Below, piece by piece: positions 7,403-36,200 of a stretch of 38,180 bases of DNA (its first letter is position 1; each line of letters starts with the position of its first letter). A program made the translations under genes and the position numbers. Under the pieces are notes generated by a model, which saw nothing but the letters and a program-made list of their open reading frames with translations, was not told where the DNA came from and searched no databases. The stretch is from a virus, in the IMG/VR virus record IMGVR_UViG_3300034170_000034, positions 1 to 38,180 of that record; one strand, 5' to 3'.

Positions 7403-7422
7403 TGTCGGTTTCCCGACTATTT
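7403..7422 (-). promoter_or_regulatory. Late-operon motif copy 1
   Basis: Minus strand AAATAGTCGGGAAACCGACA. It begins 11 nt after the scaffold stop. Confidence 0.8.
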
Positions 7423-7433
7423 GAAGCGGGGAG

Positions 7434-8285
7434 TTAGAAGCGGGTCGTCGGCTTGTTGTACTTCTGGTCGTACATGCCATCGAGTTGGGCCTTGATACCG
7501 GCGCGCTTCGGATCATGTGCGGGCAATGCCTCAAGCTGGGCACGCAACTCGGCAGCCTTGACGTTGAAGTCCGCCTCGCTGACCTGCACGCCACCGTTGA
7601 TGGCGCTGTCTTCCTTGAGCTCCTTGCCGATGTTGGCGGTGAACGCGATGAAGTCCGGGTCATTCCCATACTTGGCCTGGAGCGCGGCGAAGTTGCCCGG
7701 CTTTCCCGGCTCGCTGGCGAAGGCCTCAGCAGCACGGTATGAGGCGCGAACGTTCTGGGTAATGGCCTGTTCATCACCCCACACAGCCTTGAGCGCGGCG
7801 GTGCAGTCCTGGGTGCTGAGTTGCACACCACCCTCGACCAGGCCGGGTGCCGCCTTCATGTACTCGCCGATCACGTACTGCACCTGATCATTGGTCAGGC
7901 CCTTGGCGTGCGCGCCCTTGAGGAACGACTGTGTACCCTCGTCGGCCTTGAATTCATCCCAGTCGAAACCCTCGACGCCCTCCAGCTTGACCGCGTATTC
8001 ATCGGCGGTCTTGGGTGGCACGTCGCCGGAACCCAGGCGGGTTTCGAGGTGTTTGTACGACTCGGCCAGCTTGCGGCTGGACTGATCCAAGTCGAGCGAG
8101 CCGTCTTCCTTGTTGACACGGTACTTCTCGGGGATGAAGTCGGTGGTGTTGGCGCCGCTGTCAAGCACAGTGCTAGTGGCTGCCGTGTTGGACGTAGTGG
8201 CCGCAGCTGTGGTTGCGCCAGGCTCGCCATCGGTGGTTTCAGCCATGAAAACGTGGCCCAGTCGGCCATGGATAAACATGTTCAT
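7434..8285 (-). CDS. Scaffolding (capsid assembly) protein, 283 aa
   Basis: Acidic, A/E/K-rich helical protein between portal and capsid, as for T7 gp9. An alternative start is the ATG at 8246. Confidence 0.65.
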   Translation of the reverse strand: MNMFIHGRLGHVFMAETTDGEPGATTAAATTSNTAATSTVLDSGANTTDFIPEKYRVNKEDGSLDLDQSSRKLAESYKHLETRLGSGDVPPKTADEYAVKLEGVEGFDWDEFKADEGTQSFLKGAHAKGLTNDQVQYVIGEYMKAAPGLVEGGVQLSTQDCTAALKAVWGDEQAITQNVRASYRAAEAFASEPGKPGNFAALQAKYGNDPDFIAFTANIGKELKEDSAINGGVQVSEADFNVKAAELRAQLEALPAHDPKRAGIKAQLDGMYDQKYNKPTTRF

Positions 8286-8455
8286 TTGTCACCGCCTTGG
8301 ACTGCAGCAAGGTCCTTGAGGCGCTGCGCAATTGACTTGCTCGCCTCTTTCAGTGCGTCGCTCGCTTCGATAGTGGTGGCGTCCCTGGTCGCCTCGTTGA
8401 TTGGGCGTAGCAGGTCAGCCAAGCCCTTTGCATATTCGATATCGATATAGTCCAC
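8282..8455 (-). CDS. Small hypothetical protein, 57 aa, GTG start (below the ORF-track cutoff)
   Basis: AGAGGA SD lies 6 nt upstream of the GTG at 8455. The stop overlaps the scaffold ATG (ATGA). Translates as VDYIDIEYAKGLADLLRPINEATRD... Confidence 0.4.
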   Translation of the reverse strand: MDYIDIEYAKGLADLLRPINEATRDATTIEASDALKEASKSIAQRLKDLAAVQGGDK

Positions 8456-8457
8456 GG

Positions 8458-8703
8458 TTATTCCTCTTGGTCGTTTGGATCGGCTTGGACGCCGTTGGCG
8501 CGGTTGATACGGTTAACAACGTGGTCCAGGACTTCACGGGCCCCGGCTTGCTTGTAGGTGGTGAGGATGGCGTCGATGCCGCCGACGGTGCAGGCGTTCT
8601 TGGCGAAGCGCTGCAGTAGCAGCTCAAAGCACATGGCGCCCTCGTGGTGGTCCTCGAACACACGCTTGAACATCGCGTCGACCTGCTCGGGGGTCATGCT
8701 CAT
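8458..8703 (-). CDS. Hypothetical protein, 81 aa
   Basis: ATGA overlap with the portal stop, and GC3-biased. Confidence 0.6.
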   Translation of the reverse strand: MSMTPEQVDAMFKRVFEDHHEGAMCFELLLQRFAKNACTVGGIDAILTTYKQAGAREVLDHVVNRINRANGVQADPNDQEE

Positions 8704-10295
8704 GCTGCGGCTCCATGTTGTTTCAGTGCAGCGTCACTGGCCTGCTGCGCCATCATTTGCTGCTGCGCCTGCTGTTGCTGTTCCTGCTGAGCCTGTGCGC
8801 GGTCCTGGCGGATCTTGTCCCGATCGGCAGAGCTGCGGATGATCGAGCCAGGCACGCCCAAGGCCTCACCCTTGAAGCGCTGCGCTTCGTCCATGTCGAT
8901 GTTGTCCATCACTGTGGGGTCAGCCTGAGCAACGATCAGCGCGCCCTGGATGAACGTATCGATAGCCGTCACCTCCTCCAGCTTCTGGGATCGGGCCAGC
9001 GGCGACAGGTAGCGCACGGTGAAGTTGCGACCGGCCAGTGATTCAGGCGCGACACCCAGCACGCCAGCGCGGTAAGCGATGCCGAAGCAACGCTCGATCA
9101 TCGGTTGCAGGTACTCGGTTTGCAGCCGGCCATACACCGGGCCAAGCAACTGGCGGATCAGGTTCACCCGCACATGCACCTCTGTGGCAGTCATCGCCGG
9201 GCCGTCCTGGGCCTGGAGCTGGTCGGCCATCAGGATCTTGCGGATAGAGCCCTGCAGGCGCTGGATCTTGGTCTCGGCGTACTGGAAGTTGGAGCCGCTT
9301 TGCAACGGCTTCATGCTGTCCACGCTGTTGGCCACGATGATCTTGCGCGGCCCGACCTTGACGGTGCGCGGGTTCAGCACGCCGTCATCCTCAGCAATCC
9401 ACATGCCAGCGATGGCCAGGTCACCGGCCGCCAGGTCCATGCGGCACAGTTCGTTCAGGGTGCGCGCGTCAGGCAAGGCGTCGAACACCGGGCCCACCGC
9501 GTACACGCTGTCTGGAATCATCATCCAGCGCGGCACGACGACGGGCATTTCGTGGTAGCCCGACTCGCTGACCAGCTTCTTGGCCGCCACCTCGACCTTG
9601 CATGACGCCACCGGCATGTTCTTCGCCAGCTTGGCGTTGACCATATGAGTGGTGCGCGGGTAGATCGCGTGAACGAACTTGACCGGCTCCTGCGGCTTGT
9701 CCTTGGCCAGCTTGCGCGTGCCGTCGCTCAGGTTCTCTTCTCCGAACTCGTTTACTGCCTGCTCGGCGGTGAGCGTGTATTCCCGGTACACGGTGTCGAT
9801 CTTGCCGCCAGCCTTGGACGCTGAGGCGTACACGCTCGCAATAGGCCACAGATCGAACGTGAAGCCGCCCTTCTCCATGTCCTGATCGATGTACAGGGCA
9901 AACCATCCAGCGCACACGACGTCAATCAACCCCTCAAAGGCGGCCGCGTCGAAGTTGGATGCGTGGATGTTCTGCCAAAGGATGTCGGCCGAGTCATCCA
10001 GCCAGCGGCGCTCGTCCTCGCTTTCCTGGCCAACGTCCATGCCGAACCACAGCGAGTTGGCCGGGGTCAGGCCCGACATGATCCCGGACGACAGAATCCG
10101 TGCCGCGTCCGTGGTGGTGCCATCGATCATCCTGGCTTTGCGCATCTGCGCCTCCAGGGCTGTGATCTGCTCCGTACAGAACCCACTCCCACGGATCGGA
10201 TAGCTGTGGTCGAAGCAATCGCGCCAGACCGTCTCGTGCGGTGAGCGGAGTGACTTCAAGGTGCTCAGCGTTTTGGCGATCTGGTCTGCGTTCAT
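8700..10295 (-). CDS. Portal (head-tail connector) protein, T7 gp8-like, 531 aa
   Basis: Its size and its position upstream of scaffold and capsid fit a portal. The Q-rich C-terminal tail (QAQQEQQQQAQQQMMAQQ) resembles T7 gp8. Confidence 0.8.
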   Translation of the reverse strand: MNADQIAKTLSTLKSLRSPHETVWRDCFDHSYPIRGSGFCTEQITALEAQMRKARMIDGTTTDAARILSSGIMSGLTPANSLWFGMDVGQESEDERRWLDDSADILWQNIHASNFDAAAFEGLIDVVCAGWFALYIDQDMEKGGFTFDLWPIASVYASASKAGGKIDTVYREYTLTAEQAVNEFGEENLSDGTRKLAKDKPQEPVKFVHAIYPRTTHMVNAKLAKNMPVASCKVEVAAKKLVSESGYHEMPVVVPRWMMIPDSVYAVGPVFDALPDARTLNELCRMDLAAGDLAIAGMWIAEDDGVLNPRTVKVGPRKIIVANSVDSMKPLQSGSNFQYAETKIQRLQGSIRKILMADQLQAQDGPAMTATEVHVRVNLIRQLLGPVYGRLQTEYLQPMIERCFGIAYRAGVLGVAPESLAGRNFTVRYLSPLARSQKLEEVTAIDTFIQGALIVAQADPTVMDNIDMDEAQRFKGEALGVPGSIIRSSADRDKIRQDRAQAQQEQQQQAQQQMMAQQASDAALKQHGAAA

Positions 10296-10495
10296 GCGCC
10301 GAGTGTCCTTTTCCCTTGATCAAGTACTGACCCAGCAGCGCCACCGGTGGAGAGCAGGCTGCTCTCGGCCTTGCGCTTCTTGCGGGTGGCGGTCTCTTCG
10401 TTGGCCTTCTGGGCGGCTAGGTCGGCGGCCTTCTGTGCCGTGACGGCTGGATCTTCGGTCTGAACTACCGCTGGCTTGCTTGGCTTGCTCCCCAT
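10292..10495 (-). CDS. Small basic hypothetical protein, 67 aa
   Basis: AAGGAG SD and an ATGA overlap with the portal start. Confidence 0.55.
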   Translation of the reverse strand: MGSKPSKPAVVQTEDPAVTAQKAADLAAQKANEETATRKKRKAESSLLSTGGAAGSVLDQGKRTLGA

Positions 10496-10499
10496 GGTG

Positions 10500-10874
10500 T
10501 TACTCCTTCACTGGTGGAACAGGGCAGAGCCAGCCTTCGCTGGTCAGCACGGGCTGCTTGATCGTGGTTGCGTCGATGGCGGAAGACTTGGCCTTGGTCG
10601 CAGCCTTTGCCTCGGGCTGTTGCTCGGCCTGCTTCACGAACGGCTCACCGCCGGCAATCAGGCGCTCAGCCTCGGCCTCAGCCTGTTCCTTTGCGCCTTC
10701 ACCGGTAGCGATGTAGTCGCTGAACCAGTCGTCAGCAGCAGTCGACCAGATCTTCCAGCGGCCACCGCCGTTGTGTTTGGCAACGAACAGGGCTGGTGCT
10801 GGGGTTTCAGGGGCTGGCGCGGTATTGGCGTTCAAGTCGCCGGGTGTCTGCGGGGTGAACTCTGGTGCGGGCAT
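10500..10874 (-). CDS. Hypothetical protein, 124 aa
   Basis: First ORF after late motif copy 2; GC3-biased. Confidence 0.55.
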   Translation of the reverse strand: MPAPEFTPQTPGDLNANTAPAPETPAPALFVAKHNGGGRWKIWSTAADDWFSDYIATGEGAKEQAEAEAERLIAGGEPFVKQAEQQPEAKAATKAKSSAIDATTIKQPVLTSEGWLCPVPPVKE

Positions 10875-10878
10875 TGGT

Positions 10879-10912
10879 CTGGCCTCGGTGGTTGTTGATC
10901 AACGAGGGCCAG
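10879..10912 (-). other. Hairpin enclosing the SD of the 124-aa gene
   Basis: Minus strand CTGGCCCTCG-ttgatcaacaaccac-CGAGGCCAG, with one bulge, ending 4 nt before the ATG at 10874. Confidence 0.55.
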
Positions 10913-10928
10913 AATCAATGGAGAGGGC

Positions 10929-10948
10929 TGTCGGGTTCCCGACTATTT
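10929..10948 (-). promoter_or_regulatory. Late-operon motif copy 2
   Basis: Minus strand AAATAGTCGGGAACCCGACA. The TAG inside the motif is the Rz stop codon. Confidence 0.8.
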
Positions 10949-11386
10949 CGCTGGTGTGCGCTTGCAGGTGAGTGCATACGCCTGAAGGCCAATCACTTGA
11001 GCGGTGACTTTGGCGTTGGCTGCAACGAGGTCGGCATAATCCTGTCGAGCATCTGCTGCAAGTTCGGGGGCGGCTGCATCAGGGCTGCCGGCGGGCTGGG
11101 GATTGGCTGGCACACAGGCGGCGCGGACGTACACGCGCTTAACGCCAGCGCCGAGATCAGCAACAAGCTGCGGCTTGGATTGTTCAGCATTGTGGATTGC
11201 CTCTTGGTACTGGGCGTCGATGGAATCGCGGACGGTTAGGTCCTGCTCGTATGCTGCTGCCTGGCCCTGGAGCGTGCCCACTAGCTCGTTGGCTGTATCC
11301 AGGCTGGTGCTGACATGATCAAGACGCCACAACGCCAGCAGCAGGCCAATGGCGAGCGCGGCGCAGATGCCAAGGATGATCTTCAT
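10943..11386 (-). CDS. Rz: i-spanin (Rz-like), 147 aa
   Basis: N-terminal TM segment (MKIILGICAALAIGLLLALW), a coiled-coil, and a KRVYVRAAC motif. It is last in the lysis cassette and contains an embedded lipoprotein ORF. Confidence 0.8.
   Translation of the reverse strand: MKIILGICAALAIGLLLALWRLDHVSTSLDTANELVGTLQGQAAAYEQDLTVRDSIDAQYQEAIHNAEQSKPQLVADLGAGVKRVYVRAACVPANPQPAGSPDAAAPELAADARQDYADLVAANAKVTAQVIGLQAYALTCKRTPAK
10993..11190 (-). CDS. Rz1: o-spanin (Rz1-like lipoprotein) embedded in Rz in another frame, 65 aa
   Basis: LLLISALALSAC lipobox-like signal followed by a proline-rich mature part. Confidence 0.75.
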   Translation of the reverse strand: MLNNPSRSLLLISALALSACTSAPPVCQPIPSPPAALMQPPPNLQQMLDRIMPTSLQPTPKSPLK

Positions 11387-11805
11387 GCCAGCGCCATCCG
11401 CACGCCTTCATCGATCTCGCCCTTGATGTACGGGTTGTATCCGTTCTCGTGCCGGATGATCGCGGTCACCATGGGGGTAAGCATGGCCGGACTGCGTAGG
11501 TCGATGTTCGCGTAGGAGGTCACACTCATGGCCTGGGCCACCGCTTCGGCGTAAGCCCTGGTGTTGTTCTCGGTGGCAGGCGCCCAGCGGCCAATGATCT
11601 GGGCCACAGTCTTGAGCCCATGCTTGGCCTGGTAGGTCAGCAGCAGCTTGGCCAGGGCACGGATGCCGTTCTCGGGAGAGTCGAACCGGGCAAACCGTTT
11701 CTCAAGCACCGGGTTGGGCGGTAGCTGACCGCGCCACTTGTTCGCCGGCACGTAGTCGATGTTGCCGGGGTTGTTGTTGCGGATGCCACGGGATTGAGCG
11801 GACAT
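11383..11805 (-). CDS. Endolysin (lysozyme-like peptidoglycan hydrolase), 140 aa
   Basis: Lies between the holins and Rz. Carries the GIRNNNPGNI motif that I associate with a family of small phage muralytic enzymes. ATGA overlap with Rz. Confidence 0.7.
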   Translation of the reverse strand: MSAQSRGIRNNNPGNIDYVPANKWRGQLPPNPVLEKRFARFDSPENGIRALAKLLLTYQAKHGLKTVAQIIGRWAPATENNTRAYAEAVAQAMSVTSYANIDLRSPAMLTPMVTAIIRHENGYNPYIKGEIDEGVRMALA

Positions 11806-11819
11806 GGTTGGGTCTCAGG

Positions 11820-12047
11820 CTATTGGCCGGCTGGAGGTTCTTGATTGCGGAGCTTCGATTGCTGAACAACCCTGGCAATGGCCACACCAACGCTGAGCAC
11901 CATGTTGACGATGGCGAACACCAGTGGGTCGACTGCACCCTGGAACACCGACCATGCGGCTGCGGCTGCGTTGAGGACGGCACACGCGATAGCCAACTGA
12001 ACGCTGGTCATGCGCCAGAACTTGCGCCACTCGGGTATGAGCTTCAT
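11820..12047 (-). CDS. Holin/antiholin-like membrane protein, 75 aa
   Basis: Two hydrophobic segments and a charged C-terminus, inside the lysis cassette. Confidence 0.6.
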   Translation of the reverse strand: MKLIPEWRKFWRMTSVQLAIACAVLNAAAAAWSVFQGAVDPLVFAIVNMVLSVGVAIARVVQQSKLRNQEPPAGQ

Positions 12048-12343
12048 GGGCGTAACTGATCGCGCAATGCTCGACGGCGATCAGCGCTCTCTCTAAGCCG
12101 CTCTGCACTCTCGGCATGCTCACGGCGATCCCTGCGCACCTGGAAGTAAAGATTGGTCAGCAGGCCCAGCACCGCAATGACAACGCCAGACACGCCAATC
12201 CAATTCACCTGGGAGAAGAAACCAACAAGGCCCACCGCGCCGCCCGTGAGCATCCCTTTGCTGGCGACTGACGCGCCAACGACCTCTACGATGCTCTCGG
12301 GTGCTGGGTTGGCCATACTGCTACTCCTATCTGGAGCCTTCAT
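12044..12343 (-). CDS. Holin-like membrane protein, 99 aa
   Basis: Hydrophobic core (GGAVGLVGFFSQVNWIGVSGVVIAVLGLL) and a highly charged C-terminus. GGAGG SD. First gene after the terminator. Confidence 0.6.
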   Translation of the reverse strand: MKAPDRSSSMANPAPESIVEVVGASVASKGMLTGGAVGLVGFFSQVNWIGVSGVVIAVLGLLTNLYFQVRRDRREHAESAERLRESADRRRALRDQLRP

Positions 12344-12360
12344 GGGTGGCCTCCAGGGTC

Positions 12361-12391
12361 AAAAAAAAGCCCAGCGCGTGGTGGCTGGGCT
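12361..12391 (-). terminator. Strong rho-independent terminator between the early nin-like genes and the lysis cassette (tR'-like position)
   Basis: Minus strand AGCCCAGC-caccacgc-GCTGGGCT followed by TTTTTTTT. Confidence 0.8.
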
Positions 12392-12421
12392 GCGATGACG
12401 GTAAGAGTCGTCTGGGTCAGG

Positions 12422-12441
12422 TGTCGGAATCCCGACTATTT
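12422..12441 (-). promoter_or_regulatory. Late-operon motif copy 3
   Basis: Minus strand AAATAGTCGGGATTCCGACA. Its TAG is the stop of the 133-aa gene, and the terminator stem begins 30 nt downstream (12391). Confidence 0.8.
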
Positions 12442-12837
12442 CCGACCTCCACACCAGAACTCGTACAGTTCCGTAGTCATCTTACTGATGTAGACGCCGT
12501 CATCCTGGTCAGTGTTATAGCCTTTCTGGTGCGCTAGAGCCTCAAACGCGTCCCTGCTTCCGCGATACCCATCCACAAGAGTTGGCAGCGCATCAACATC
12601 GTTACCAATAACGTATACGGCACCCCTGAAACCCATGCCGCTGTGCATCGGCTCACGCCTGTAAATCACCTCTTCAACCGTAATGCACTCCGGCACACCT
12701 GGACCTTCGTAGCGCGTGGCACGGGTTTTTGGCAGCACGGCACAACGGATACTCGGCACACCCTCTAGGACTGACATGCGCACGCCATCCTTCGGGCCAC
12801 CAATCAGCAAAACGTTTTCATATTTCATACGAGCCAT
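12436..12837 (-). CDS. Hypothetical protein in the lambda Q position, 133 aa
   Basis: Trimmed to the ATG at 12837 (MARMKYENVLLIGGPKDG). I recognise no Q-like zinc motif. The function is unknown. Confidence 0.55.
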   Translation of the reverse strand: MARMKYENVLLIGGPKDGVRMSVLEGVPSIRCAVLPKTRATRYEGPGVPECITVEEVIYRREPMHSGMGFRGAVYVIGNDVDALPTLVDGYRGSRDAFEALAHQKGYNTDQDDGVYISKMTTELYEFWCGGRK

Positions 12838-12844
12838 CCCATGT

Positions 12845-13105
12845 TTAGGCCTTCGAATGATAAGCCCACCAGTCACCAATCGCGACCATGGGCAATGATT
12901 TACGGTCCCGGCCTGTAGCCTGAACCCAGAACTGAACAAGACGCTCGCCCTCGGTGTATCGAGGTTCAGCGCCCTGCTTCCAACCAATCAGTGTCGACCG
13001 AGGCACCTTGATCACCTCCGCCGCCGACTGGATCGAATACCCAGCACGCAGAATCCCGTTGATGACCTGGAACCAGTCAACGCGCACCTCGGCCTGGGCG
13101 AGCAT
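12845..13105 (-). CDS. Small HTH DNA-binding protein (NinH-position), 86 aa
   Basis: GYSIQSAAEVIKVPRSTLIGWKQG reads as a helix-turn-helix. Confidence 0.55.
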   Translation of the reverse strand: MLAQAEVRVDWFQVINGILRAGYSIQSAAEVIKVPRSTLIGWKQGAEPRYTEGERLVQFWVQATGRDRKSLPMVAIGDWWAYHSKA

Positions 13106-13107
13106 GG

Positions 13108-13443
13108 TCAGGCGCTCACTGCACGCGACACAGCGTCAGCAATGGCGCTACGCGGGTAGCATGACAACTTCCCCCGGCAACGGCTGTCGCCGCACGCACA
13201 AAAGCGAATATCGAACCAACTGTCGCGGCCCTCGGGCGGAGTGAGTAACTCCCAGAAGCCTGTAATCACTGGCGCGGCTCCACGGCCATATGTTTCGGTA
13301 GTGGCCGACTCTTTGAACAACATCCGCCCATATGCGCGACCATATGTGACGAGCTCTGTCCACAGTTCCTCCCACTCGGCACGTATTTGAGCCATTTCCA
13401 GCTCATCCCGGATGCGCAACTGCTCCATCGTCGGGACTTTCAT
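13108..13443 (-). CDS. Hypothetical protein, 111 aa
   Basis: ATGA overlap with the NinG stop, and GC3 bias. Confidence 0.55.
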   Translation of the reverse strand: MKVPTMEQLRIRDELEMAQIRAEWEELWTELVTYGRAYGRMLFKESATTETYGRGAAPVITGFWELLTPPEGRDSWFDIRFCACGDSRCRGKLSCYPRSAIADAVSRAVSA

Positions 13444-14069
13444 GCAGCACCTCCAAACGCGTGCGCGCGCGAGGCACAGTTGGTATCAGCACCCTTCCCC
13501 ACCAATTCCTTCAACATGGCCCTGTACCTCGCTTTGATCTGCTTCAAGTCGTCGATGGTGTAGCGCTGTGGTTCGTGTGGGCCTTCCAGCCATGCAAGCT
13601 TTTCGGCCCCGATCTTCTGCAAAAGACGTGGGCGGTAACCGAGGATGTTCCCGGACTTGCCCATGTTGCAGTTGCGGTTGCACTGGCGATGCACGTTCAG
13701 TGGTTCGAAGCGCAGCTCTGGGCATGAGCCGACTGTGCGGTAGTGCCCGGCGCAGTACTGGACATCGGCCGTGGTTCCGCACGATATGCATGGTTGCCCG
13801 GCGTCCCTTGCTCTCACGTAGGCGTTGAAAGCCTTCTGTGCCTCGTCCATGTACTGGGGTTTGGTCTTAACGCGCTCCTTGGCCGCTCTCAGCTCCTTCC
13901 TGCCTACATCAGCGAGAGCCTTGCGGGCTTTGTTTTGATTCACGTCCTTGATGGCGAGACCACATGGGTAGCTGCATACGGCTTGACCCAGGCGCTGAGC
14001 GACGAACTTCTCGCCGCATGCTGGGTTCTTGCAGGTCTTCGGGCGGGGCTGTTTGGCTGGGAGGCTCAT
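13440..14069 (-). CDS. ninG: NinG/Rap-family recombination endonuclease, 209 aa
   Basis: CKNPACGEKF...CSYPC zinc cluster, CAGHYRTVGSCPELRF, and NVHRQCNRNCNMGKSGN...YR, as in lambda NinG. Confidence 0.8.
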   Translation of the reverse strand: MSLPAKQPRPKTCKNPACGEKFVAQRLGQAVCSYPCGLAIKDVNQNKARKALADVGRKELRAAKERVKTKPQYMDEAQKAFNAYVRARDAGQPCISCGTTADVQYCAGHYRTVGSCPELRFEPLNVHRQCNRNCNMGKSGNILGYRPRLLQKIGAEKLAWLEGPHEPQRYTIDDLKQIKARYRAMLKELVGKGADTNCASRAHAFGGAA

Positions 14070-14506
14070 GCAGCCTTCCTTTCGCCGTAGATGGCGTACA
14101 TCAGGTCATCAGGATGCGGGAGCAAGAGCTGCAGGTGTTCGGCGCAGTAGGCGTCCAGGCGCTCCAAGTACTCGGTCATCTCAGCGATGGTGAACTTACG
14201 AGTCTTGGCCCGCCCCACGCGGTATTGGGTGCCGTCTGGCAGACGAACAGGATGCACCTCGGCGGGCCACAGCTTCGAAACCAGGATCTCGTGCCACTCT
14301 TCTGAGCTGGCGAGCTGGCCGAAGGAATCGCGCAGGTGCGACTGGATCAGGCCGTTCCACATCCACAGCAGCTTGTTCTGTGCGTCACTGCGCTTGCTGC
14401 GGATCTCGACGATGGTCAGCTTGCGCGGCTTGGACAGGTCCAGGGCTGTCAGGTAGCCGATCAGCCGTGTGCGATCAGATTCGTTGCGGAGCATGAGGTC
14501 AGTCAT
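14066..14506 (-). CDS. ninB: NinB/Orf-family recombination mediator, 146 aa
   Basis: Trimmed to the ATG at 14506. Carries the KRSDAQNKLLWMW motif, and its length equals that of lambda NinB. Confidence 0.75.
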   Translation of the reverse strand: MTDLMLRNESDRTRLIGYLTALDLSKPRKLTIVEIRSKRSDAQNKLLWMWNGLIQSHLRDSFGQLASSEEWHEILVSKLWPAEVHPVRLPDGTQYRVGRAKTRKFTIAEMTEYLERLDAYCAEHLQLLLPHPDDLMYAIYGERKAA

Positions 14507-14682
14507 GGCTTCGAACTCCACGTTTGCCACATAGCGATTGCCATAATCACCGTGAACGGCCATACCAAAACGAGGAGCGCGAGCCCGAAGTACTCCCACA
14601 CCTCACGCTTTACTTTCAGGGCCAAATCAACCCCAAGCGCCCATCCAAGAACGAATACAGCGAAAAGCGCGTAGGCGATCAT
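14503..14682 (-). CDS. Small two-TM membrane protein, 59 aa (below the ORF-track cutoff)
   Basis: ATGA overlaps at both ends. Translates as MIAYALFAVFVLGWALGVDLALKVKREVWEYFGLALLVLVWPFTVIMAIAMWQTWSSKP. Confidence 0.55.
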   Translation of the reverse strand: MIAYALFAVFVLGWALGVDLALKVKREVWEYFGLALLVLVWPFTVIMAIAMWQTWSSKP

Positions 14683-15392
14683 GTCCGTTGCTCCGTGGGT
14701 TTCTTGCCGAACTTTGCCATCAGCAACGCGCGGGCTGACTGCCCATCAGTCGGGATGCCTTGCTGGATGATTCGTTCTTGGGTTTTTTGGTCTGCCAGTT
14801 CGTTGGCCAATTCGAAGGCGGTCTTCTGGCTGTCGTGGCCGATGCCGGTCAGGATCTTGCCGTCGAGCGGCTGGCCTTCCTGGGCGCGGCGGATCACGAT
14901 CGCGTAGTTGTGATCGAAGCGCTGGCGCAACCCCTTGTCTTCCTGCTTGGCGCTGCGCAAGTCGAAGATCCCGGTCTCGTTGGCAGCGATGCGCACACCG
15001 TCGTGGCTGTAGACGCCCATCAGGGCTTCCATCCAGGCTGCTGGAGCATTTGGCATGCCGAAGTCTTCAGGGCTTGGCACGCACATGGCGATGAATTCAC
15101 CAACGCTTGGCGCAAATGGCTTCTTGAGCTTGCGGCACTTCTGGATACCGAACTCGATCTGCTCCAGGGTGCGGATGCCGACGTCGGCAAATTCCTTGAT
15201 CCATTCGGCCTTGGCGGAGTCGAGCGCTTCGGTGGATGGCCAGGCCTGGCGCCATGCTGGGAAGATCCCACGCAGCCGGCGGAACAGGTCGTTTACCACC
15301 TCGGCGGTTTCGTGAGTGACGTGCACCGGCTCAGATTGAATCGCTGGCGGCAGGTTGCCGATGGTTGCGAGAAGCTGGCTGACCTGCTTCAT
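14679..15392 (-). CDS. P: Replication protein P homologue (helicase loader), 237 aa
   Basis: VNDLFRRLRGIFPAW...AEWIKEFADVGIRTLEQIEFGIQKCRKLKKPFAPSVGEFIAMC aligns by eye with lambda P INGVFSQLLATFPAS...RRQWVLAFRENGITTMEQV...RPFLPSPGQFVAWC. Confidence 0.8.
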   Translation of the reverse strand: MKQVSQLLATIGNLPPAIQSEPVHVTHETAEVVNDLFRRLRGIFPAWRQAWPSTEALDSAKAEWIKEFADVGIRTLEQIEFGIQKCRKLKKPFAPSVGEFIAMCVPSPEDFGMPNAPAAWMEALMGVYSHDGVRIAANETGIFDLRSAKQEDKGLRQRFDHNYAIVIRRAQEGQPLDGKILTGIGHDSQKTAFELANELADQKTQERIIQQGIPTDGQSARALLMAKFGKKPTEQRT

Positions 15393-16093
15393 GGGCGCAC
15401 CATCAGGTTATTTGCCCAGTCGGTGCTGTCGAAGTCCGGCTCGTTGCGGTTTGGCAGGCGGTGGACGTTGCTGGTGGTCTTGTCCGGGAAGATCCCGGTC
15501 CAGCCGTTGGAAATTGAGTTGACCAGCACCTGGTCCGGGGTGGCGTGCCCTTCCAGCGCCTTGGCCTGCTGCTCGCAGCTCTTGGCGGTCAGTGGCTTGT
15601 GGATCTCACGGCGGTGTTGGCACCAATCGGCCCAGACTTGGGCGGACACGTTGGCTGGCTTGGCAGTGAGCGGATCGAACTTGCATGGCTTCGGCTTCAC
15701 CGGTGCGGGAGCGGGAGCGACATGCTTTTGATCTTGTTCTGTATCTGTATCTGTATCTGGGGGCGTTACTGTAACGTTACATGACTGTTTCTTCTTTGCA
15801 CGATGGGCTGCAACCCGCGCCCTGCTTGAGTCGGATACGAATTGGCGACGGTCCCAAGAGGTAGGCATGCAGTCCTCATCAATGAGGCCTTTGCTCAAGA
15901 AAAGCGCCTTTGTGGTGGCCCACTCTTCGTTACTGATACGCAGCTGAAACGCTATCTCCGTTTCATGTAACGTTACACCGTCGTTACTGCAACGAAGGCA
16001 GAGCAGCATGACGAAGCGGCGCTGATCAGCCTCGCTCATCATCTGGACTTTCGGGTCAGTGGCGAACTCGCCATACATCCGGAACCAATCCAC
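15389..16093 (-). CDS. Replication initiator-like protein (DUF1376/YdaU-type N-terminus, O-position), 234 aa
   Basis: MDWFRMYGEFATDPKV start. Lies upstream of P and overlaps it. Confidence 0.6.
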   Translation of the reverse strand: MDWFRMYGEFATDPKVQMMSEADQRRFVMLLCLRCSNDGVTLHETEIAFQLRISNEEWATTKALFLSKGLIDEDCMPTSWDRRQFVSDSSRARVAAHRAKKKQSCNVTVTPPDTDTDTEQDQKHVAPAPAPVKPKPCKFDPLTAKPANVSAQVWADWCQHRREIHKPLTAKSCEQQAKALEGHATPDQVLVNSISNGWTGIFPDKTTSNVHRLPNRNEPDFDSTDWANNLMVRP

Positions 16094-16095
16094 GG

Positions 16096-16404
16096 CTATT
16101 CCTCCTGCAACTGATCAACGTTCTGGATCAGATCCATGTACCGCTTGGCCTGGTGCAGAAGGGTTTCAATATCCCGCTTGTCGAAGCACTGCATGGCCTT
16201 CGGCACGACCTTCAAGTCGAGTACGGCCAGGATCTGGCAGAACTGCTCAAACCGTTCCGGCTTCATGCGGCTGATCGTTGCTTCGTCAACACCGACTGCA
16301 TGCGCCACAGGAGCATTGCCGACCGATGCAAGCTGCTGCATGAGAACGGCGTAGTTCTTGCGGGCCCTTACGGTCTGTTCTTGGCTTAATGGGCTCGTCG
16401 ACAT
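16096..16404 (-). CDS. cII: CII-like transcriptional activator, 102 aa
   Basis: AHAVGVDEATISRMKPERFEQFCQILAVLDLKVV compares closely with lambda CII AEAVGVDKSQISRWKRDWIPKFSMLLAVLEWGVV. Confidence 0.85.
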   Translation of the reverse strand: MSTSPLSQEQTVRARKNYAVLMQQLASVGNAPVAHAVGVDEATISRMKPERFEQFCQILAVLDLKVVPKAMQCFDKRDIETLLHQAKRYMDLIQNVDQLQEE

Positions 16405-16406
16405 GA

Positions 16407-16598
16407 TCAGGCCGCCGACTTGGAGGCCCGATCAGCCTGTTGGTGCAGGCTCTCGATTGCCTTGCCGAGCTGGTAGCTGACCATTGCGCCATTGGCTGCA
16501 CGCGAGATAGTTGGCTGTGTGGTACCGCACTTTTCAGCAACCGCTGTCTGCGACAGACCGAGCTTGAATAGTCGATTCAACATCTCTTGAATTGTCAT
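16407..16598 (-). CDS. cro: Cro-like HTH repressor, 63 aa
   Basis: Trimmed to the ATG at 16598. HTH reads LSQTAVAEKCGTTQPTISRAANG. Divergent from cI. Confidence 0.7.
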   Translation of the reverse strand: MTIQEMLNRLFKLGLSQTAVAEKCGTTQPTISRAANGAMVSYQLGKAIESLHQQADRASKSAA

Positions 16599-16629
16599 GT
16601 TGGGAATCCTATGAGGTTTTGCATAACAA

Positions 16630-16658
16630 ATCATACGAATCTGCATGGCGCAATGCAA
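16630..16658 (-). promoter_or_regulatory. PR-like promoter for the cro operon
   Basis: Minus strand TTGCAT, a 17-nt spacer, then TATGAT. The operator overlaps the -10. Confidence 0.6.
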
Positions 16659-16682
16659 TAGAATTCTCATAATGCATTTACG

Positions 16683-16688
16683 TATACT
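16683..16688 (+). promoter_or_regulatory. PRM-like -10 (TATACT) giving a near-leaderless cI mRNA
   Basis: TATACT ends 9 nt before the cI ATG. There is no usable SD and only a poor -35. Confidence 0.4.
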
Positions 16689-16697
16689 GGTGGACTG

Positions 16698-17354: not shown

Positions 17355-17380
17355 CGCTATAAATAAATGGAGTTAGCTGC

Positions 17381-29271: not shown

Positions 29272-29299
29272 GTAAAACATGCTGTGTATTCATACAGCA
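29272..29299 (-). terminator. Terminator candidate ending the late operon after the tail fibre
   Basis: Minus strand TGCTGT-atgaatac-ACAGCA followed by TGTTTTAC. Confidence 0.5.
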
Positions 29300-29304
29300 G
29301 TATA

Positions 29305-29334
29305 TGGGACATCCAGTGTCCCAGGATTGTCCCA
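29305..29334. repeat. Candidate integrase arm-type sites, tail-fibre-proximal arm
   Basis: TGGGACA (29305-29311), then TGTCCCAggatTGTCCCA (29317-29334). The arrangement matches the other arm. Confidence 0.55.
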
Positions 29335-29390
29335 CCCTCCCCCGGCGTCCTGCCGACCGAACACAATCCACACTCAGCACGGCATGATAA

Positions 29391-31634: not shown

Positions 31635-31659
31635 GGTTTGCCCCCTGGTGGTGGGCGGG

Positions 31660-33273
31660 CTAGTAGTCCACTTGAACCTCATGAACGCCCGCATCTGGAC
31701 GCCAATTGTCTCGACGGGTCTCTGTCGGTTTCCCGACTATTCGGCCAATTCGGACTGGGGTTTGGGCGATAGCGCCGGCACCGGAGTCGATGTAGTCGTC
31801 CTCCTGGTTGTTCACTGCCGGGTTGAAGTCGCGCATCTGGTCCCAGATTGTGTTGAGCACATCGACGTGCGCCCACAGGAAGCGGGCCGACAATGGGGAT
31901 TCGAAGGCGTCGAGGATGCGTTTCTGCTTGTTGATAGTGGAGTGCTCTTCCCCTACCCCGCACCCGGTGCCCTTGAGCGCCTGCTTTAGGAGGGTTGGCG
32001 CGAAACCTCCGGGGCCGTTGGTCTCGATGACCACGCGGGGGATCTGATGCTTTACCACCAGCTCTCGGATCTGGTGTACCTGGCCGCCAATGATCTGATC
32101 CTTTGGGCCGAACTCCGCGATTTCCCCGGTCAGGCCCACGGCCAGGTGCCAATAGAGCTGCCCGCGCGCGTCGGTGAGCATGAGCGAGAAGGCCGATGCA
32201 TCCGACTTGATCTTGCCCAGGGAGCAGTCCCAGTACGCTACGGCGCCGACGATCTGCGTCGAGCCAAGGTACATAGCTGCCGCGTCGTTGGCGTAACGCA
32301 TGACCGGCTGCGCGTCGTAGGGAATGATGCGTTCAGGGTCCAAGCGAACCTCCGTGACGGGTTTCGAGTGGAGCTGATACTGCGAATCCCATTCGTTGAT
32401 GGTGCGGGTTTTTTTGCGGCGCTTCTCCAGTTCCAGCAGGTCGAACCGATCCACCCAGGCTATGCCGGCGTAGCAGTCGATCAGCGTACCGGGCGGGGAA
32501 AAGAAGGCGATACCAGTCTTGGTGAGCTGGTAATCCTTGCCCAGCACCAGGGCGCGGGCATGCTTGCCGATTCCGGAGAACACGAATTCAGGAACGAACG
32601 GCACGTCGTAGGCAATGAGCCTGGCATCCTCGATTCGATGCTCGCGGGCGAACATGCGGATGGTCAGGCAGTCGGCTCCCAGGGCTTCCTGCTCGTCGTA
32701 CAGGCTGTCATGGGTGTGCGGCGTGCCAACGAACAGCAGGCGTGCGCCGGGCACCATGATGTGGATCTGCTCGCCCAGGCGGTATCGCAGCTTCTCGCGC
32801 GCCTCGGGCGTGGCGATGTTCTTGGGCACCTCAACGTCATCGTTCTGGCACTCGTCGGCGCGCGAACTAGTGATGTTCGACATGATGCCGGAGGCCTGCA
32901 TGGACGGGTTTCGTTCATCCACGGCGCCAGGTACCCACCAGAACGCGGTGTCACCCTTCATCTTGCGATGGGCATCCATGGTCAGCGGGTGCCGCATCAG
33001 GATCGCCTTGGTGTCCCGGCTGGTCTTGTAGGCCGTGGGGTCGGTGTCACCCTGGTGCAGGATTCGATAAGTCGGGTTCAGGTAGAACCGCCAGGCGTTG
33101 TACAGCGCCAGGATGGTGGACTTGCCGAACCCACGGAAACAGCGAAGCACCGCGTGGTCACCGCGATGCTCAAGCCAGTGGCAGGCCCGGATATGGATGT
33201 CCGGCACCTCCCACTTCATGCGCTTTGCCCATATAAGGAAGAACGCCAGAAACGATATGTACTTAGTGGACAT
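31660..33273 (-). CDS. terL: Terminase large subunit, 537 aa
   Basis: Walker-A-like RGFGKST. The N-terminus (WAKRMKWEVPDIHIRACHWLE) resembles T7-group maturase B. It follows a small-subunit candidate. Confidence 0.8.
   Translation of the reverse strand: MSTKYISFLAFFLIWAKRMKWEVPDIHIRACHWLEHRGDHAVLRCFRGFGKSTILALYNAWRFYLNPTYRILHQGDTDPTAYKTSRDTKAILMRHPLTMDAHRKMKGDTAFWWVPGAVDERNPSMQASGIMSNITSSRADECQNDDVEVPKNIATPEAREKLRYRLGEQIHIMVPGARLLFVGTPHTHDSLYDEQEALGADCLTIRMFAREHRIEDARLIAYDVPFVPEFVFSGIGKHARALVLGKDYQLTKTGIAFFSPPGTLIDCYAGIAWVDRFDLLELEKRRKKTRTINEWDSQYQLHSKPVTEVRLDPERIIPYDAQPVMRYANDAAAMYLGSTQIVGAVAYWDCSLGKIKSDASAFSLMLTDARGQLYWHLAVGLTGEIAEFGPKDQIIGGQVHQIRELVVKHQIPRVVIETNGPGGFAPTLLKQALKGTGCGVGEEHSTINKQKRILDAFESPLSARFLWAHVDVLNTIWDQMRDFNPAVNNQEDDYIDSGAGAIAQTPVRIGRIVGKPTETRRDNWRPDAGVHEVQVDY
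31723..31742 (-). promoter_or_regulatory. Late-operon motif copy 4, inside the terL 3' end
   Basis: Minus strand GAATAGTCGGGAAACCGACA, read in frame as R-I-V-G-K-P-T. Confidence 0.75.
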
Positions 33274-33595
33274 GCACGCCCGCCTGTGCGCGCTCCAGCA
33301 GCGCCACGGCTTCGCGTTCAGCCTGAGCCTGCACCTTGTCTAAATCGTCCTCGGTGCTGTCCTTGGGCAGCGTCCCACCCTGAATGTGGCCGGTGATGCT
33401 GATCACCTTGACCAGCAGCGTCATGGTGGCGGCGGCGTTCTTCTTGCACCAATGCCGGTCACCTCGTTCATCGCGGGTCAATTGGTCCAGCATCTTTCCG
33501 GTGCCGGGCCAGTTTTCTGGGTTCGCCTCATCAAGCACTACGTCGGCCAGGCCTTCGGAGAGGGACTTCAATCGTTCAATCTGGTCTGGTCGCAT
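33263..33595 (-). CDS. terS: Terminase small subunit candidate, 110 aa
   Basis: Only the in-frame tail of ORF 33263..34033, from the ATG at 33595 (ATGA overlap with the 846-aa gene). It overlaps the terL start. The function call rests on position. Confidence 0.5.
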   Translation of the reverse strand: MRPDQIERLKSLSEGLADVVLDEANPENWPGTGKMLDQLTRDERGDRHWCKKNAAATMTLLVKVISITGHIQGGTLPKDSTEDDLDKVQAQAEREAVALLERAQAGVHVH

Positions 33596-36135
33596 CACTT
33601 CGCTCCTACTGCGGCGCCAAGGTTCGGGCCGCGATCTGGTGTCGAGTCGCCCGGTTCCCACCAGTACGACTGCTTGAATTCCTTGTGGGCCCGCTGTTTC
33701 ATCCGGCGCAGGTAGCCCGGCGAGAAGTAATCCTGCAGTTGGTTGAAGATCAGGTGATCGGTAGCGGCCTTGGTGTACCAGAGGTTGGCCCCGGGTAAAT
33801 GGCTCTTGGCCAGGCGCACCAGCTTGCCGCCGGTTTGGTTGACCTCGCCGTCGGCGGCGTTGTCTTTGAGCTTGAAGATCGATTCCAGGTCGCCAGCAAT
33901 CGGCCCGCCAAGCGCCGCCAGCGGGGAGCTGCCGCCCTGCGATGTGTCGGAGAACAGGAAGTCGCCGTATAGCCCAATAGCACCGCCCTTGAGGAACGAG
34001 GCCAAGCCAAAGCGCAGGCCAGGCACACCCCACTTCTTGTCGTCGGTGATGTCCTTTGGATCGCGGCCGGCGGCAATCTCGCCCAACTGAATGGCCATGC
34101 CACCCAGCACAGTGGTGGATGCGACCAGGGCAGCCAGATACCCAGCCTTGCCCCAGCCTTCTTGGGCCATGCCGCGCGCGCCGTGACGCATCATCATGCC
34201 GATGGAGAAGCTCTTGAACTGCCAGAACGAGCGCGTCAACTCGCCCTTCCAGGTTCCACGCTCAATGCCGCCGTGCATCATGGCTTTCTCGCGGGAGCCC
34301 GGCTCAATGATTGCCATATTGGTTTCATCCAGCACGGTGCCAAGCAGCTTGGTAGCGGCCTGATCCTTGAGGCGCTGCGGGGTTGTTTTGAGCTGCTGCG
34401 CCATTGTCACCAGGTCAGCGTCGGGAATACGGTAGATGCTGTTCGCCGTCAGCACAGTGTCGCCCACACCACGCCAATCTTCGGGCTCAGCCATGCGCCA
34501 GACGGACCAGTCCGTGTCTGTGACGCCCTGGCCCGCCAGGCGCTTGGCATCCGCTGGGTCCATGGCCGCGAGGGAATCATGTCGACGGGTCATGTCGCCA
34601 ATGGTGTCCAGCATGGTCGCGCCGAACGCGCGCTGGGAACCGGCGGTCAAGGCATTGAGCCCGGACGCCTGCATGATTTTGCTGGCGGCGGTCTGCGAAA
34701 ACTTGGCGATACGCCCCGCCACCTGCTCATTGGTGCCCAGGCCATCAGCCCCGAACCGGTTCAGGCTGCCGATCAGTTGGTTCAGGCCCAGGCCAGCGCG
34801 CTGAGCAATACGGCGGTCTGCGGCACTGGCCGGGTTGAGCATGCGCAGTTCGTTGGCAAACACCTTCATCACCGGCATACCGTTCATGGATGCGGTGAGG
34901 CCCAGTGTTCCCTGGTCGGTGACCGACGTCAGAACAGCGGAGCCCAGGCGACTGGCGACGTTGAGCGCCCGATAGGTATCAAACCCATTGGCCAGGGCGG
35001 CAGACACCGGCGGTTCACGCGTGCCAGCGACCTCTTCAAACAGGTGCTCAATTTTGCGGCGCTGCTTGGCGGTTTTCACTGCGTCCGTTGGCCGGGCCAT
35101 GTCGGTCGCTTTCTGCCCGGCGTCCATGAAATAGCGCATTTGGTTGCTCGGGTTTGGCCCAAGGGTTTCAACCAGGGCGATGTCCCGCGATGCGCGATCG
35201 ATATGGCCAATCAACAATTCCAGCAGGTTGCGGTCGCCGTAGGCCTTCTGGGCCGCGATGAAGCTCTCTGCGTCCTTGTAGTGGATCTGGCGGGACTCAC
35301 TGCCACGGTTGGCGCGCATGCCGTTGCCGGCGGCCTGGCCTGGCTCCAGCTTGTTCGTTCCGCCGGTGGCCAGGGTGACCCACGCGTGATTGAGGAAGTC
35401 GGTCAACTCCGTGTCATTCATCGGCGTGCCGTCTTCCTTGAGGTACTTGCCACGGTTCGCCCATTGCACGTGATCTGCGACCCACTTGGCCTGATCCTTG
35501 GCCACCTTCACCTGGGAGTGATCGCGCGGCATGGACCAGTCATCCAAGAACCCGACGTCACCACCGGCGCGATTGAATCGCTGGCGCAACTGTTCGGCCG
35601 TGTCCTTGAACTGCTTGGCGGCGGTCTTGGCCACGGCGCTGCCTGAGTCTTCACCGTGCAGCTCGCGCACCAGGGCCAGGTTTCCGGTTTCATCCTGGAA
35701 CAGGCCCATGAACTTACCCTTGGTCTGGTCGATCACGTCCAGCATGCGGCTGATGGAGTCGTCGCGGATCGCCCGGGTGGATGACTCAATCGACAGAATC
35801 CCGCTCTTGCCGTCACTGGAGAACGCCAGCATCCGGTCGAGCCCTTCAAGCGGATGCTCCGGGAAGCGCTTCATGTAGCTGTCGATGCGGTCGTGGGCCA
35901 GGATGGTCAGCGCCACGCGCTTTTTCTTGAGGTCGGCTTCGGCCACCAGATCCTTGGCGGACTTGGCGGCGGCTTCATTCAGTCGGTCGGCAGCGGTCTT
36001 GGATTGCCAGTCGGGATCGGTCTGCGCCAGTTGCTTCATGTTGCGGCGCACGCGGTCCTCGATCCCTTTGATTTCCGGCTGGTTGAGGGTTCGGCCGATA
36101 GCCTGGGTAACGGCCTTGATGCATTCGGGGCGCAT
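33595..36135 (-). CDS. Large internal virion/ejection protein (gp16-region analogue), 846 aa
   Basis: Large virion-block protein with G/A-rich hydrophobic C-terminal segments. No RNAP or transglycosylase motifs were recognised. Confidence 0.5.
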   Translation of the reverse strand: MRPECIKAVTQAIGRTLNQPEIKGIEDRVRRNMKQLAQTDPDWQSKTAADRLNEAAAKSAKDLVAEADLKKKRVALTILAHDRIDSYMKRFPEHPLEGLDRMLAFSSDGKSGILSIESSTRAIRDDSISRMLDVIDQTKGKFMGLFQDETGNLALVRELHGEDSGSAVAKTAAKQFKDTAEQLRQRFNRAGGDVGFLDDWSMPRDHSQVKVAKDQAKWVADHVQWANRGKYLKEDGTPMNDTELTDFLNHAWVTLATGGTNKLEPGQAAGNGMRANRGSESRQIHYKDAESFIAAQKAYGDRNLLELLIGHIDRASRDIALVETLGPNPSNQMRYFMDAGQKATDMARPTDAVKTAKQRRKIEHLFEEVAGTREPPVSAALANGFDTYRALNVASRLGSAVLTSVTDQGTLGLTASMNGMPVMKVFANELRMLNPASAADRRIAQRAGLGLNQLIGSLNRFGADGLGTNEQVAGRIAKFSQTAASKIMQASGLNALTAGSQRAFGATMLDTIGDMTRRHDSLAAMDPADAKRLAGQGVTDTDWSVWRMAEPEDWRGVGDTVLTANSIYRIPDADLVTMAQQLKTTPQRLKDQAATKLLGTVLDETNMAIIEPGSREKAMMHGGIERGTWKGELTRSFWQFKSFSIGMMMRHGARGMAQEGWGKAGYLAALVASTTVLGGMAIQLGEIAAGRDPKDITDDKKWGVPGLRFGLASFLKGGAIGLYGDFLFSDTSQGGSSPLAALGGPIAGDLESIFKLKDNAADGEVNQTGGKLVRLAKSHLPGANLWYTKAATDHLIFNQLQDYFSPGYLRRMKQRAHKEFKQSYWWEPGDSTPDRGPNLGAAVGAK

Positions 36136-36136
36136 G

Positions 36137-36166
36137 GGCTTGCTCCTGGTTGAATGGGAGCAAGCC
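36137..36166 (-). other. Perfect 10-bp hairpin sequestering the SD of the 846-aa gene
   Basis: Minus strand GGCTTGCTCC-cattcaacca-GGAGCAAGCC, then C, then ATG. Confidence 0.6.
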
Positions 36167-36180
36167 TATGGTTCGGTGGC

Positions 36181-36200
36181 AGACGGTTTCCCGACTATTT
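36181..36200 (-). promoter_or_regulatory. Late-operon motif copy 5
   Basis: Minus strand AAATAGTCGGGAAACCGTCT. The upstream TAA stop (36199-36201) overlaps the motif's first two A residues (TAAATAG). Confidence 0.75.

Follow-up and report, generated by a model that had tools for sequence, protein, structure and literature searches.

Five copies of a 20-nucleotide (nt) motif are located on the minus strand of the window, which is the whole 38,180-nt stretch of viral DNA analyzed here (IMG/VR virus record IMGVR_UViG_3300034170_000034, positions 1 to 38,180). These five motifs are probably the upstream halves of late-gene promoters that would be activated by p86, an 86-amino-acid (aa) helix-turn-helix (HTH) protein encoded by the same temperate Pseudomonas phage. 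From their sequence pattern, the sites are very likely to be promoter elements, and if they are, p86 is likely to be the factor that acts on them. In the proposed mechanism, the motif would lie over -44 to -25 and would take the place of the -35 hexamer. Since no -35 hexamer is present, host RNA polymerase would need a factor bound to the motif. The candidate factor p86 would be delivered from the delayed-early operon, at the position that Q holds in lambdoid phages. Five late units would be switched on in this way: the lysis genes; the portal and scaffold genes; the genes from the capsid to the internal virion proteins; the genes from the 846-aa protein to the terminase; and the tailspike gene. 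We infer the promoter activity, the start sites, and the binding and activation by p86 from the patterns described below.

The 11-mer AATAGTCGGGA was matched five times in the window, on the minus strand only (7421-7411, 10947-10937, 12440-12430, 31741-31731, and 36199-36189). In dinucleotide-preserving shuffled sequences (n=100), the mean number of matches was 0.26, and none of the 100 shuffles reached five. The sites were confirmed, and the original prediction that five copies on the same strand do not occur by chance was verified. When both strands were scanned with the 16-mer TAGTCGGGAAACCGAC and up to 3 mismatches were allowed, the same five sites were found with zero extra. This confirms that the motif is absent from the early arms, as had been claimed.

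Copy 1 (AAATAGTCGGGAAACCGACA, 7403..7422) is upstream of the major capsid gene, and the scaffold stop codon is 11 nt upstream of it. Copy 2 (AAATAGTCGGGAACCCGACA, 10929..10948) is upstream of the 124-aa, 67-aa, portal, 81-aa, and scaffold genes, and its TAG is the Rz stop codon (10945-10943). Copy 3 (AAATAGTCGGGATTCCGACA, 12422..12441) would belong to the first late promoter, which precedes the genes for holin, endolysin, and Rz, and it supplies the stop codon TAG of the 133-aa open reading frame (ORF) at 12438-12436. Copy 4 (GAATAGTCGGGAAACCGACA, 31723..31742), the putative promoter element for the tailspike gene, is within the 3'-terminal 30 codons of the ORF for the terminase large subunit (31660-33273) and codes for R-I-V-G-K-P-T. 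Copy 5 (AAATAGTCGGGAAACCGTCT, 36181..36200) shares bases with the stop codon TAA of the 635-aa ORF (36201-36199), and the gene that follows it encodes the 846-aa virion protein. The copies had been described as lying at gene 3' ends; the stop-codon relations hold for four of them, but copy 4 is inside the terminase ORF. The start of the tailspike ORF is probably at 31634 and not at the in-frame upstream ATG at 31694.

The architecture around the motif is numbered here with the T of the motif TAG as position 0. The element AAATAGTCGGGA-(A/T)N-CCGAC spans -3 to +15 and is followed by a 13-nt spacer and a -10-like hexamer, nAnnnT, at +29 to +34. The five window hexamers, which had been overlooked earlier, are exactly 13 nt past the motif on the minus strand. 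They are AAACAT at promoter 1 (7385..7390, start predicted near 7378), GATTCT at promoter 2 (10911..10916, start predicted near 10904), GACTCT at promoter 3 (12404..12409, start predicted near 12397 from the fixed spacing and A+30/T+34), GACAAT at promoter 4 (31705..31710, start predicted near 31698), and TAGGCT at promoter 5 (36163..36168, start predicted near 36156).

A conservation profile was calculated from 81 non-redundant contexts aligned on the motif. A+30 and T+34 were each conserved at 98%, +33 was C or A, and G+36 was present in 74%. The AAA at -3 to -1 was also conserved, and the information upstream of -4 was nil. The spacer from +17 to +28 carried near-zero information, and +37 to +49 was unconserved. 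Both A+30 and T+34 were present in 135 of the 139 sites with two or fewer mismatches to the motif, and a shift by one position lowered this number to between 0 and 4. In the sites with 3 or 4 mismatches, both bases were found in 2 out of 47, a chance-like level. In sigma-70 open complexes, sigma reads the non-template A-11 and T-7 and the base two positions past the -10 hexamer. The conserved A+30, T+34, and G+36 match this pattern, by which the start would fall near +41 and the motif would span roughly -44 to -25.

A sigma-70 consensus promoter scan of window positions 1-17000 found 0 promoters versus 4.1 expected, and by inspection no reasonable -35 match was found 16 to 18 bp upstream of the hexamers. 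The earlier statement that no good sigma-70 promoter is near the copies is thus correct for the consensus scan, but it missed the nAnnnT element 13 nt past every copy. Another arrangement, with the AATAGT of the motif as the -10 element and nAnnnT as a sigma-dependent pause, was considered as well. It was rejected because AATAGT is lost in Yersinia phage YeP4, in which A+30 and T+34 are kept.

The same element, with its spacer and hexamer, was found at hundreds of sites in related prophages. The first scan pattern, AATAGTCGGGANNNCCG (14 specified bases), was too loose and returned nearly only single chance matches in coding DNA. The 17-mer ATAGTCGGGAAACCGAC matched at least 118 viral-contig stretches, and many of these came from contigs about 37 kb long that carry several copies each. 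In bacterial genomes, ATAGTCGGGAAACCGAC was clustered in prophages of Pseudomonas, Ectopseudomonas, and Stenotrophomonas, and the lone matches in unrelated taxa were mostly without the downstream hexamer. Related sites were located at the terminase-to-tailspike junction (45 sites), the scaffold-to-capsid junction (34), the Rz-to-124-aa gene junction (18), the 635-aa-to-846-aa gene junction (18), and the p86/p133-to-holin junction (about a dozen), where p133 is the 133-aa protein. The original prediction had proposed a search of relatives for copies at the same gene boundaries and for compensatory stem changes; the former were found, but the latter were not seen. A literature search for the motif sequence or for a described late promoter in such phages returned nothing relevant.

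YeP4 (50% GC) carries six sites, TGGTCAGGATTCCGAC, TAGTCGGGAAACCGAA (twice), TGGTCGGGAAACCGAA, GAGCCGGGAAACCGAT, and TAGTCAGGAAACCGAA. All six are on the late-gene strand and all have A+30 and T+34. The YeP4 -10 hexamers, such as TAAAAT and TAATTT, are better than those of the window. A terminase-embedded copy is present in YeP4 at 34938 (region 34920-35017), as it is in the window (31660-31760), and the V-G-K-P codons GTC GGG AAA CCG are identical in the two copies. The use of the same codons despite a GC content of 50% vs 59% and a protein divergence of about 31% points to constraint at the nucleotide level. The copy before the holin gene (window 12422-12441, YeP4 1914, and many relatives) has T at +9 and/or +10, giving GATT or GATC vs GAAA, and this variant may be a promoter-class-specific tuning of strength or timing. 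Pseudomonas phage YA3, the closest Pseudomonas isolate by virion proteins, was tried as a comparator but was of little use; it has Q and a gap-free late operon, and the motif system was not seen in it.

The gene for p86 is located at 12845..13105 on the minus strand, and p86 is the candidate activator of all five promoters. In the DNA around motif sites, homologues of p86 were found in 19 loci vs 1 for the 111-aa protein (p111) and 5 for p133, and p86 was upstream of the first motif copy in each of those 19 loci. Viral contigs were then searched by protein similarity to p86, and a site was counted when the motif had no more than 4 mismatches together with A+30 and T+34. Forward-strand sites were present downstream of p86 in 69 of the 80 loci, with 120 such sites vs 3 reverse-strand sites overall. 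The motif TAG is the p86 stop codon in 14 loci, and five further p86 loci have GATAGTCGGGAA(T/C)CCGCA with a 12-nt spacer. When all window ORFs were compared with YeP4, the shared proteins were the virion and packaging proteins and p86 only; the replication, immunity, and lysis genes are unrelated between the two phages.

The p86 homologues (n=90) are all unnamed and have no Pfam domain. For p86, p111, and p133, no Pfam family was found at E <= 0.01 and no relevant NCBIfam family at E <= 1; the sole NCBIfam entry for p86 was a 12-bit match to an IS3 transposase family with a 160-bit cut-off. Profile searches with p86 gave no homology to the activators Mor/C, Ogr/Delta, Lpa, or MotA. The AlphaFold model of p86 is confident (predicted local distance difference test score, pLDDT, 88) and shows a small helical HTH domain. 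The best PDB fold matches are of the Xre/Cro type, namely HipB, restriction-modification controller proteins, SinR, and P22 c2, although these matches are weak (template modeling score about 0.5, E >= 0.05). The BFVD matches are mostly HTH_XRE phage proteins, and no Pfam HTH model matches. The HTH and the TL(I/L)GWKQGAEP segment that follows it hardly vary between Pseudomonas and Yersinia, in parallel to the motif core, and the recognition helix varies too little for its covariation with the motif variants to be followed. The C-terminal segment DWWAYHSK is conserved and is extra relative to the restriction-modification controller proteins. The linkage, the sharing with YeP4, and the HTH fold make p86 the best candidate among the factors named in the original prediction.

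Some p86 homologues stand apart. A divergent homologue (P0088) is on a 4.7-kb contig without phage context or motif and is uninformative. Homologues at 61-66% identity (L353, L354, L357, and L359), on contigs with a GC content of about 52%, lack the motif downstream, and short GTCAC repeats are found past 4231 in its place; the target site or the context may be another one at these loci. Positions 17182-17511 of YeP4, next to the start of its p86 gene, contain repeated AGACAACCT-type iterons on both strands and are probably a replication origin.

Single perfect copies of motif and hexamer were also found as orphans in larger Pseudomonas prophages, before a gene for a 61-aa protein (MRAFAEAIIAIAPV...RNRFLRECDRWTNRL...) beside xis/int. 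The loci of this class are L127, L132, L155, L185, L192, L194, L208, L209, L228, L248, L249, L266, L296, and L300, with the orphans at, for example, L228:8153 and L192:12213. The 61-aa gene is just upstream of the integrase gene in the three loci that were inspected (L185, L192, and L228), and several of the loci are at the end of prophage contigs of 45-62 kb. Neither the PHROG families nor the isolated phages gave a match to the 61-aa protein. Other single perfect copies (L219:3418, L217:1806, L169 on the minus strand, and L261) precede a gene for a 171-aa protein that matches phrog_129 (transcriptional regulator) or small hydrophobic-looking ORFs, in other prophage contigs.

Several other explanations of the motif were weighed against the promoter reading. 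An RNA-level element, either a boxB/nut hairpin for an N-type antiterminator or a processing or stability site in a long late transcript, is very improbable, although every copy is sense-oriented and near gene ends and a 5-bp stem with a GAAA loop is possible. The stem-loop does fold alone at -8.7 kcal/mol, as had been claimed, but the stem is mismatched and weakened in copy 5. In YeP4 and other lineages, G5 is replaced by A, C15 by A, and A14 by T or C with no matching change on the opposite arm, and other-lineage variants read ...CCGCA or AAGGTCGG... instead. In 46 non-redundant sites, which were collected via protein similarity and not via the motif, G2, T3, C4, G6, G7, A8, C11, C12, and G13 are invariant although four mismatches were allowed. 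At the central +9 and +10, A, T, and C all occur without constraint, the GNRA loop is unconserved, and the unpaired flank AAATA is conserved although it is outside the stem. Invariant half-site bases with a variable centre are expected of a protein that reads two half-sites on duplex DNA, not of an RNA stem. An RNA element would also give no role to a -10-like hexamer at a fixed DNA spacing. The Rfam scan found no family at any copy, the tRNA scan found nothing at the sites, and no N-like family was found among the scanned small window ORFs, with boxA not searched for specifically. The suggestion of a boxB/nut-like hairpin or RNA processing site is not supported, given the uncompensated stem, the loop that is not conserved as GNRA, the location of copy 4 in coding sequence, and the conservation of the hexamer at the DNA level.

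It is also unlikely that the motif is a loading site like that of Q or AlpA, at which p86 on the motif would engage polymerase at nAnnnT, in an open complex or a sigma-dependent pause, and make it resistant to the terminator before the holin gene and to those farther on. Two features of gene order favor such a site: the p86 gene is placed as Q is in the related YA3, between ninG and the holin gene, and the first copy is followed by a strong intrinsic terminator (AGCCCAGC...GCTGGGCT + T8, 12368..12391, minus), about 6 nt past the predicted start of promoter 3 and before the holin gene. A terminator past the holin-type copy is also kept in relatives. The mode of action of AlpA in Pseudomonas aeruginosa is a parallel, as AlpA binds the promoter element GGGACG, needs a sigma-dependent pause at a -10-like sequence, and lets transcription pass the terminator before the lysis genes (PMC7969949, PMC9371919). 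However, one loading site would do, and five or six sites are present per genome. The hexamer has neither its own -35/-10 pair upstream nor a second -10-like pause element, and the possible -10 within the motif, AATAGT, is not kept in YeP4. A second intrinsic terminator (5812..5832, minus), after the 153-aa gene at the capsid/tail tubular boundary, has no promoter motif behind it and is kept in about 20 relatives; terminator-proof late transcription would make this conserved internal terminator pointless. Neither Q21 nor AlpA was found in the PDB sequence search with p86 or in its top 50 Foldseek PDB matches, and no similarity was found between p111 or p133 and the YA3 Q protein.

If the sites are promoters, the motif might be read by a host activator, a host alternative sigma factor, or another phage protein, which is unlikely. 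The orphans speak for such a factor, since no p86 gene was found in the 2-15 kb around them, and two complete Pseudomonas genomes contain no exact 17-mer besides the orphan; the linkage of p86 and motif can also be explained by shared descent. Against another factor, the motif occurs in prophage DNA only, where it precedes late genes in one orientation, and a host factor alone would not give late timing. The consensus sequences of sigma-E/AlgU, sigma-28, sigma-32, and sigma-54, compared by eye, do not fit in spacing or in the key -10 bases, and the scanned window proteins include none that resembles a sigma factor or an RNA polymerase. In addition, p86 is the sole non-structural protein shared by two motif-using phages with unrelated early regions. 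A promoter for a phage RNA polymerase, whether T7-like single-subunit, N4-like with a hairpin promoter, or of an unrecognised type, is hardly credible. The virion module is T7-like (tail tubular A/B and internal virion proteins), and a strongly conserved, strand-specific element of about 20 bp is what such promoters look like. However, the A-11/T-7 pattern points to an enzyme of the sigma-70 family, and the claim that no phage RNA polymerase gene is present was upheld, as no RNA polymerase family was found in the PHROG scans of the large ORFs or in the Pfam scan of the 635-, 672-, and 846-aa proteins, where a highly divergent enzyme would be possible.

Some observations weigh against late promoters activated by p86. 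The -10 hexamers are weak, and the first base is G and not T in most copies. A strong terminator about 6 nt past the predicted start of promoter 3 can be explained in a pure activator model only as attenuation or as a stop for the early operon, and the stable hairpins described below, which start in the -10 hexamer, are not required by that model. The co-occurrence of p86 and motif could reflect the descent of one module and not function. None of the orphan contigs is among the 80 p86 loci, so the orphans could imply a factor other than p86, or p86 acting in trans. One further possibility, which we consider doubtful, is that the late promoter of a podophage family was captured by unrelated mobile elements as switches that respond to p86 in trans. 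If p86 is the factor, the orphans would fire only when a p86-type phage is induced or infecting, and this would suggest a role as satellite, in exclusion, or in defence. In the capture scenario, the hairpins that start in the -10 hexamer and cover the ribosome-binding site would restrict translation to transcripts begun at this promoter, as the masking arm would be present in read-through RNA only.

All copies but one have a very stable hairpin downstream (z = -4.4 to -6.5). At promoter 1, the hairpin CATCGCAGGC...GCCTGCGATG (7351..7387, minus; z = -4.6) covers the -10 hexamer and the predicted start. This capsid-copy hairpin is kept in 21 relatives, with a few two-sided inner-stem changes and little covariation. 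At promoter 2, the hairpin (10878..10913, minus; z = -4.4) starts in the -10 hexamer, and the 124-aa gene has its Shine-Dalgarno GAGG in the 3' arm. At promoter 5, the hairpin GGCTTGCTCC...GGAGCAAGCC (36137..36166, minus; z = -6.5) has its 5' arm upstream of the predicted start and the Shine-Dalgarno GGAG in its 3' arm, and the arm-length variants in relatives are paired on both arms. In 117 non-redundant contexts, the main helix started most often at +31 to +36, in the -10 hexamer. Consensus folding was clean for the capsid class alone, and two other classes contained indels. Because the 5' arm is upstream of the predicted start at copies 2 and 5, only read-through RNA would have its ribosome site masked, and our hypothesis is that such masking takes place at these two copies. 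The terminator behind promoter 3 would end the early operon and attenuate the expression of the lysis genes. The terminator at 5812-5832 is probably an attenuator that sets the ratio of capsid to tail proteins. It is inside the listed tail tubular A ORF (5203-5964, minus), which is probably over-long at its 5' end, as the PHROG match begins at residue 61.

According to the PHROG scans, the window is from a temperate podophage whose regulation is lambda-like and whose virion module resembles those of T7 and epsilon15. The early genes on the minus strand are in the order cro-like, cII-like, O, P, NinB, NinG, 111-aa, p86, and 133-aa. Copy 3 and the terminator are followed by two holin genes, endolysin, and Rz; copy 2 by the 124-aa, 67-aa, portal, 81-aa, and scaffold/protease genes; and copy 1 by the major capsid and 153-aa genes, the second terminator, and the genes for tail tubular A and B, an acetyltransferase, and the internal virion proteins (172, 672, and 635 aa). 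After copy 5 are the genes for the 846-aa virion protein, the 109-aa protein, the terminase large subunit (with copy 4 in the 3' end), the tailspike, and the integrase. The late operon leaves the window at the left end and resumes at the right end, as expected of a circularly permuted genome. All but one of the scanned coding-strand ORFs of at least 500 aa have PHROG matches to virion or packaging families (portal, tail tubular B, internal virion proteins, phrog_684, terminase, and tailspike); the exception, the 635-aa protein, matches PHROGs of unknown function. The Pfam scan of the 635-, 672-, and 846-aa proteins found no match.

DNA similarity to isolated phages was limited to short early-region matches, which indicates that there is no close sequenced relative among isolated phages. 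The virion proteins most resemble those of Pseudomonas phages YA3 and MPK9 (61% identity), of Yersinia phages YeP4-6 (54%), and of the epsilon15/phiV10 group. The terminase genes are at the far end of the late operon in the window and come first in YA3. The 109-aa gene (33263-33592, minus; phrog_9277, function unknown) is between the 846-aa and terminase large subunit genes, and its product may be the small terminase subunit. Its homologue in YeP4 (33060-33410) has a motif site before it.

If the promoter assignment is true, a late-gene switch is defined for the widespread temperate epsilon15-like podophages of Pseudomonas, Stenotrophomonas, and Yersinia, and a function is given to a protein family that is now annotated only as hypothetical. 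The compact two-part switch, a 35-bp promoter and an 86-aa protein, would be a candidate orthogonal tool in Pseudomonas. The signature TAGTCGGGAWNCCGAC-N13-nAnnnT could be used to annotate the late transcription units in these prophages. The orphans pose the question of one mobile element listening to the late activator of another.

The control logic proposed here is known from Mu, P2, P1, and T4, and the parts, the motif and p86, are undescribed. The lambda N/nut system differs, as its stem is maintained by compensatory changes with a GNRA-like loop and its sites are shortly past the early promoters, together with a boxA element and an arginine-rich N protein, whereas the window motif lacks both stem features and window-type sites are before late genes only. 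In lambda Q (pR'-tR') and AlpA (PalpB-tB), as in the window, the regulator gene is directly upstream of the lysis-gene promoter, the regulator site is in the promoter, and a terminator is between the promoter and a holin-type gene. Unlike the window promoters, however, the lambda Q and AlpA promoters have a -35/-10 pair and a second, -10-like pause element. The five sites per window genome, the persistence of an internal late terminator, and the lack of relation of p86 to these regulators are further differences.

The activators of P2, 186, and P4 (Ogr, B, and Delta) and of P1 (Lpa) share the logic, with several late operons, a partly symmetric element with a -10 hexamer, and one small protein. 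The Ogr-type activators are zinc-finger proteins that act near -55, whereas p86 has no zinc-finger motif or corresponding Pfam match and its site is elsewhere. The restriction-modification controller (C) proteins and their C-boxes are also similar, being small Xre-type HTH activators with a partly palindromic site by or over the -35, but their fold match to p86 is weak (E > 0.05) and the biological setting is different. In the T4 middle promoters, a phage element (the MotA box near -30) replaces the -35 hexamer and a -10 element with A-11/T-7 is used, as in the window. The window phage differs in that it is temperate, that no MotA/AsiA homologue was found, and that its element is about 19 bp and partly palindromic.

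Phage Mu provides another parallel, and the role of the motif as the site of a small late activator, as in the C-dependent promoters of Mu, was among those originally named and is the one that the evidence supports. The p86 protein, with 86 aa, is Xre-like and has no Mor/C Pfam match, the sequence of its putative site is unrelated to the Mu sites, and the site appears to lie over the -35 (centre about -32). In both systems, the same site recurs at a fixed distance from the -10 hexamer without a usable -35 (in Mu at Plys, PI, PP, and Pmom by C, and at the middle promoter by Mor). In both, a small HTH protein made earlier by the phage would switch all units on with the host sigma-70 polymerase, a step that is proposed here for p86.

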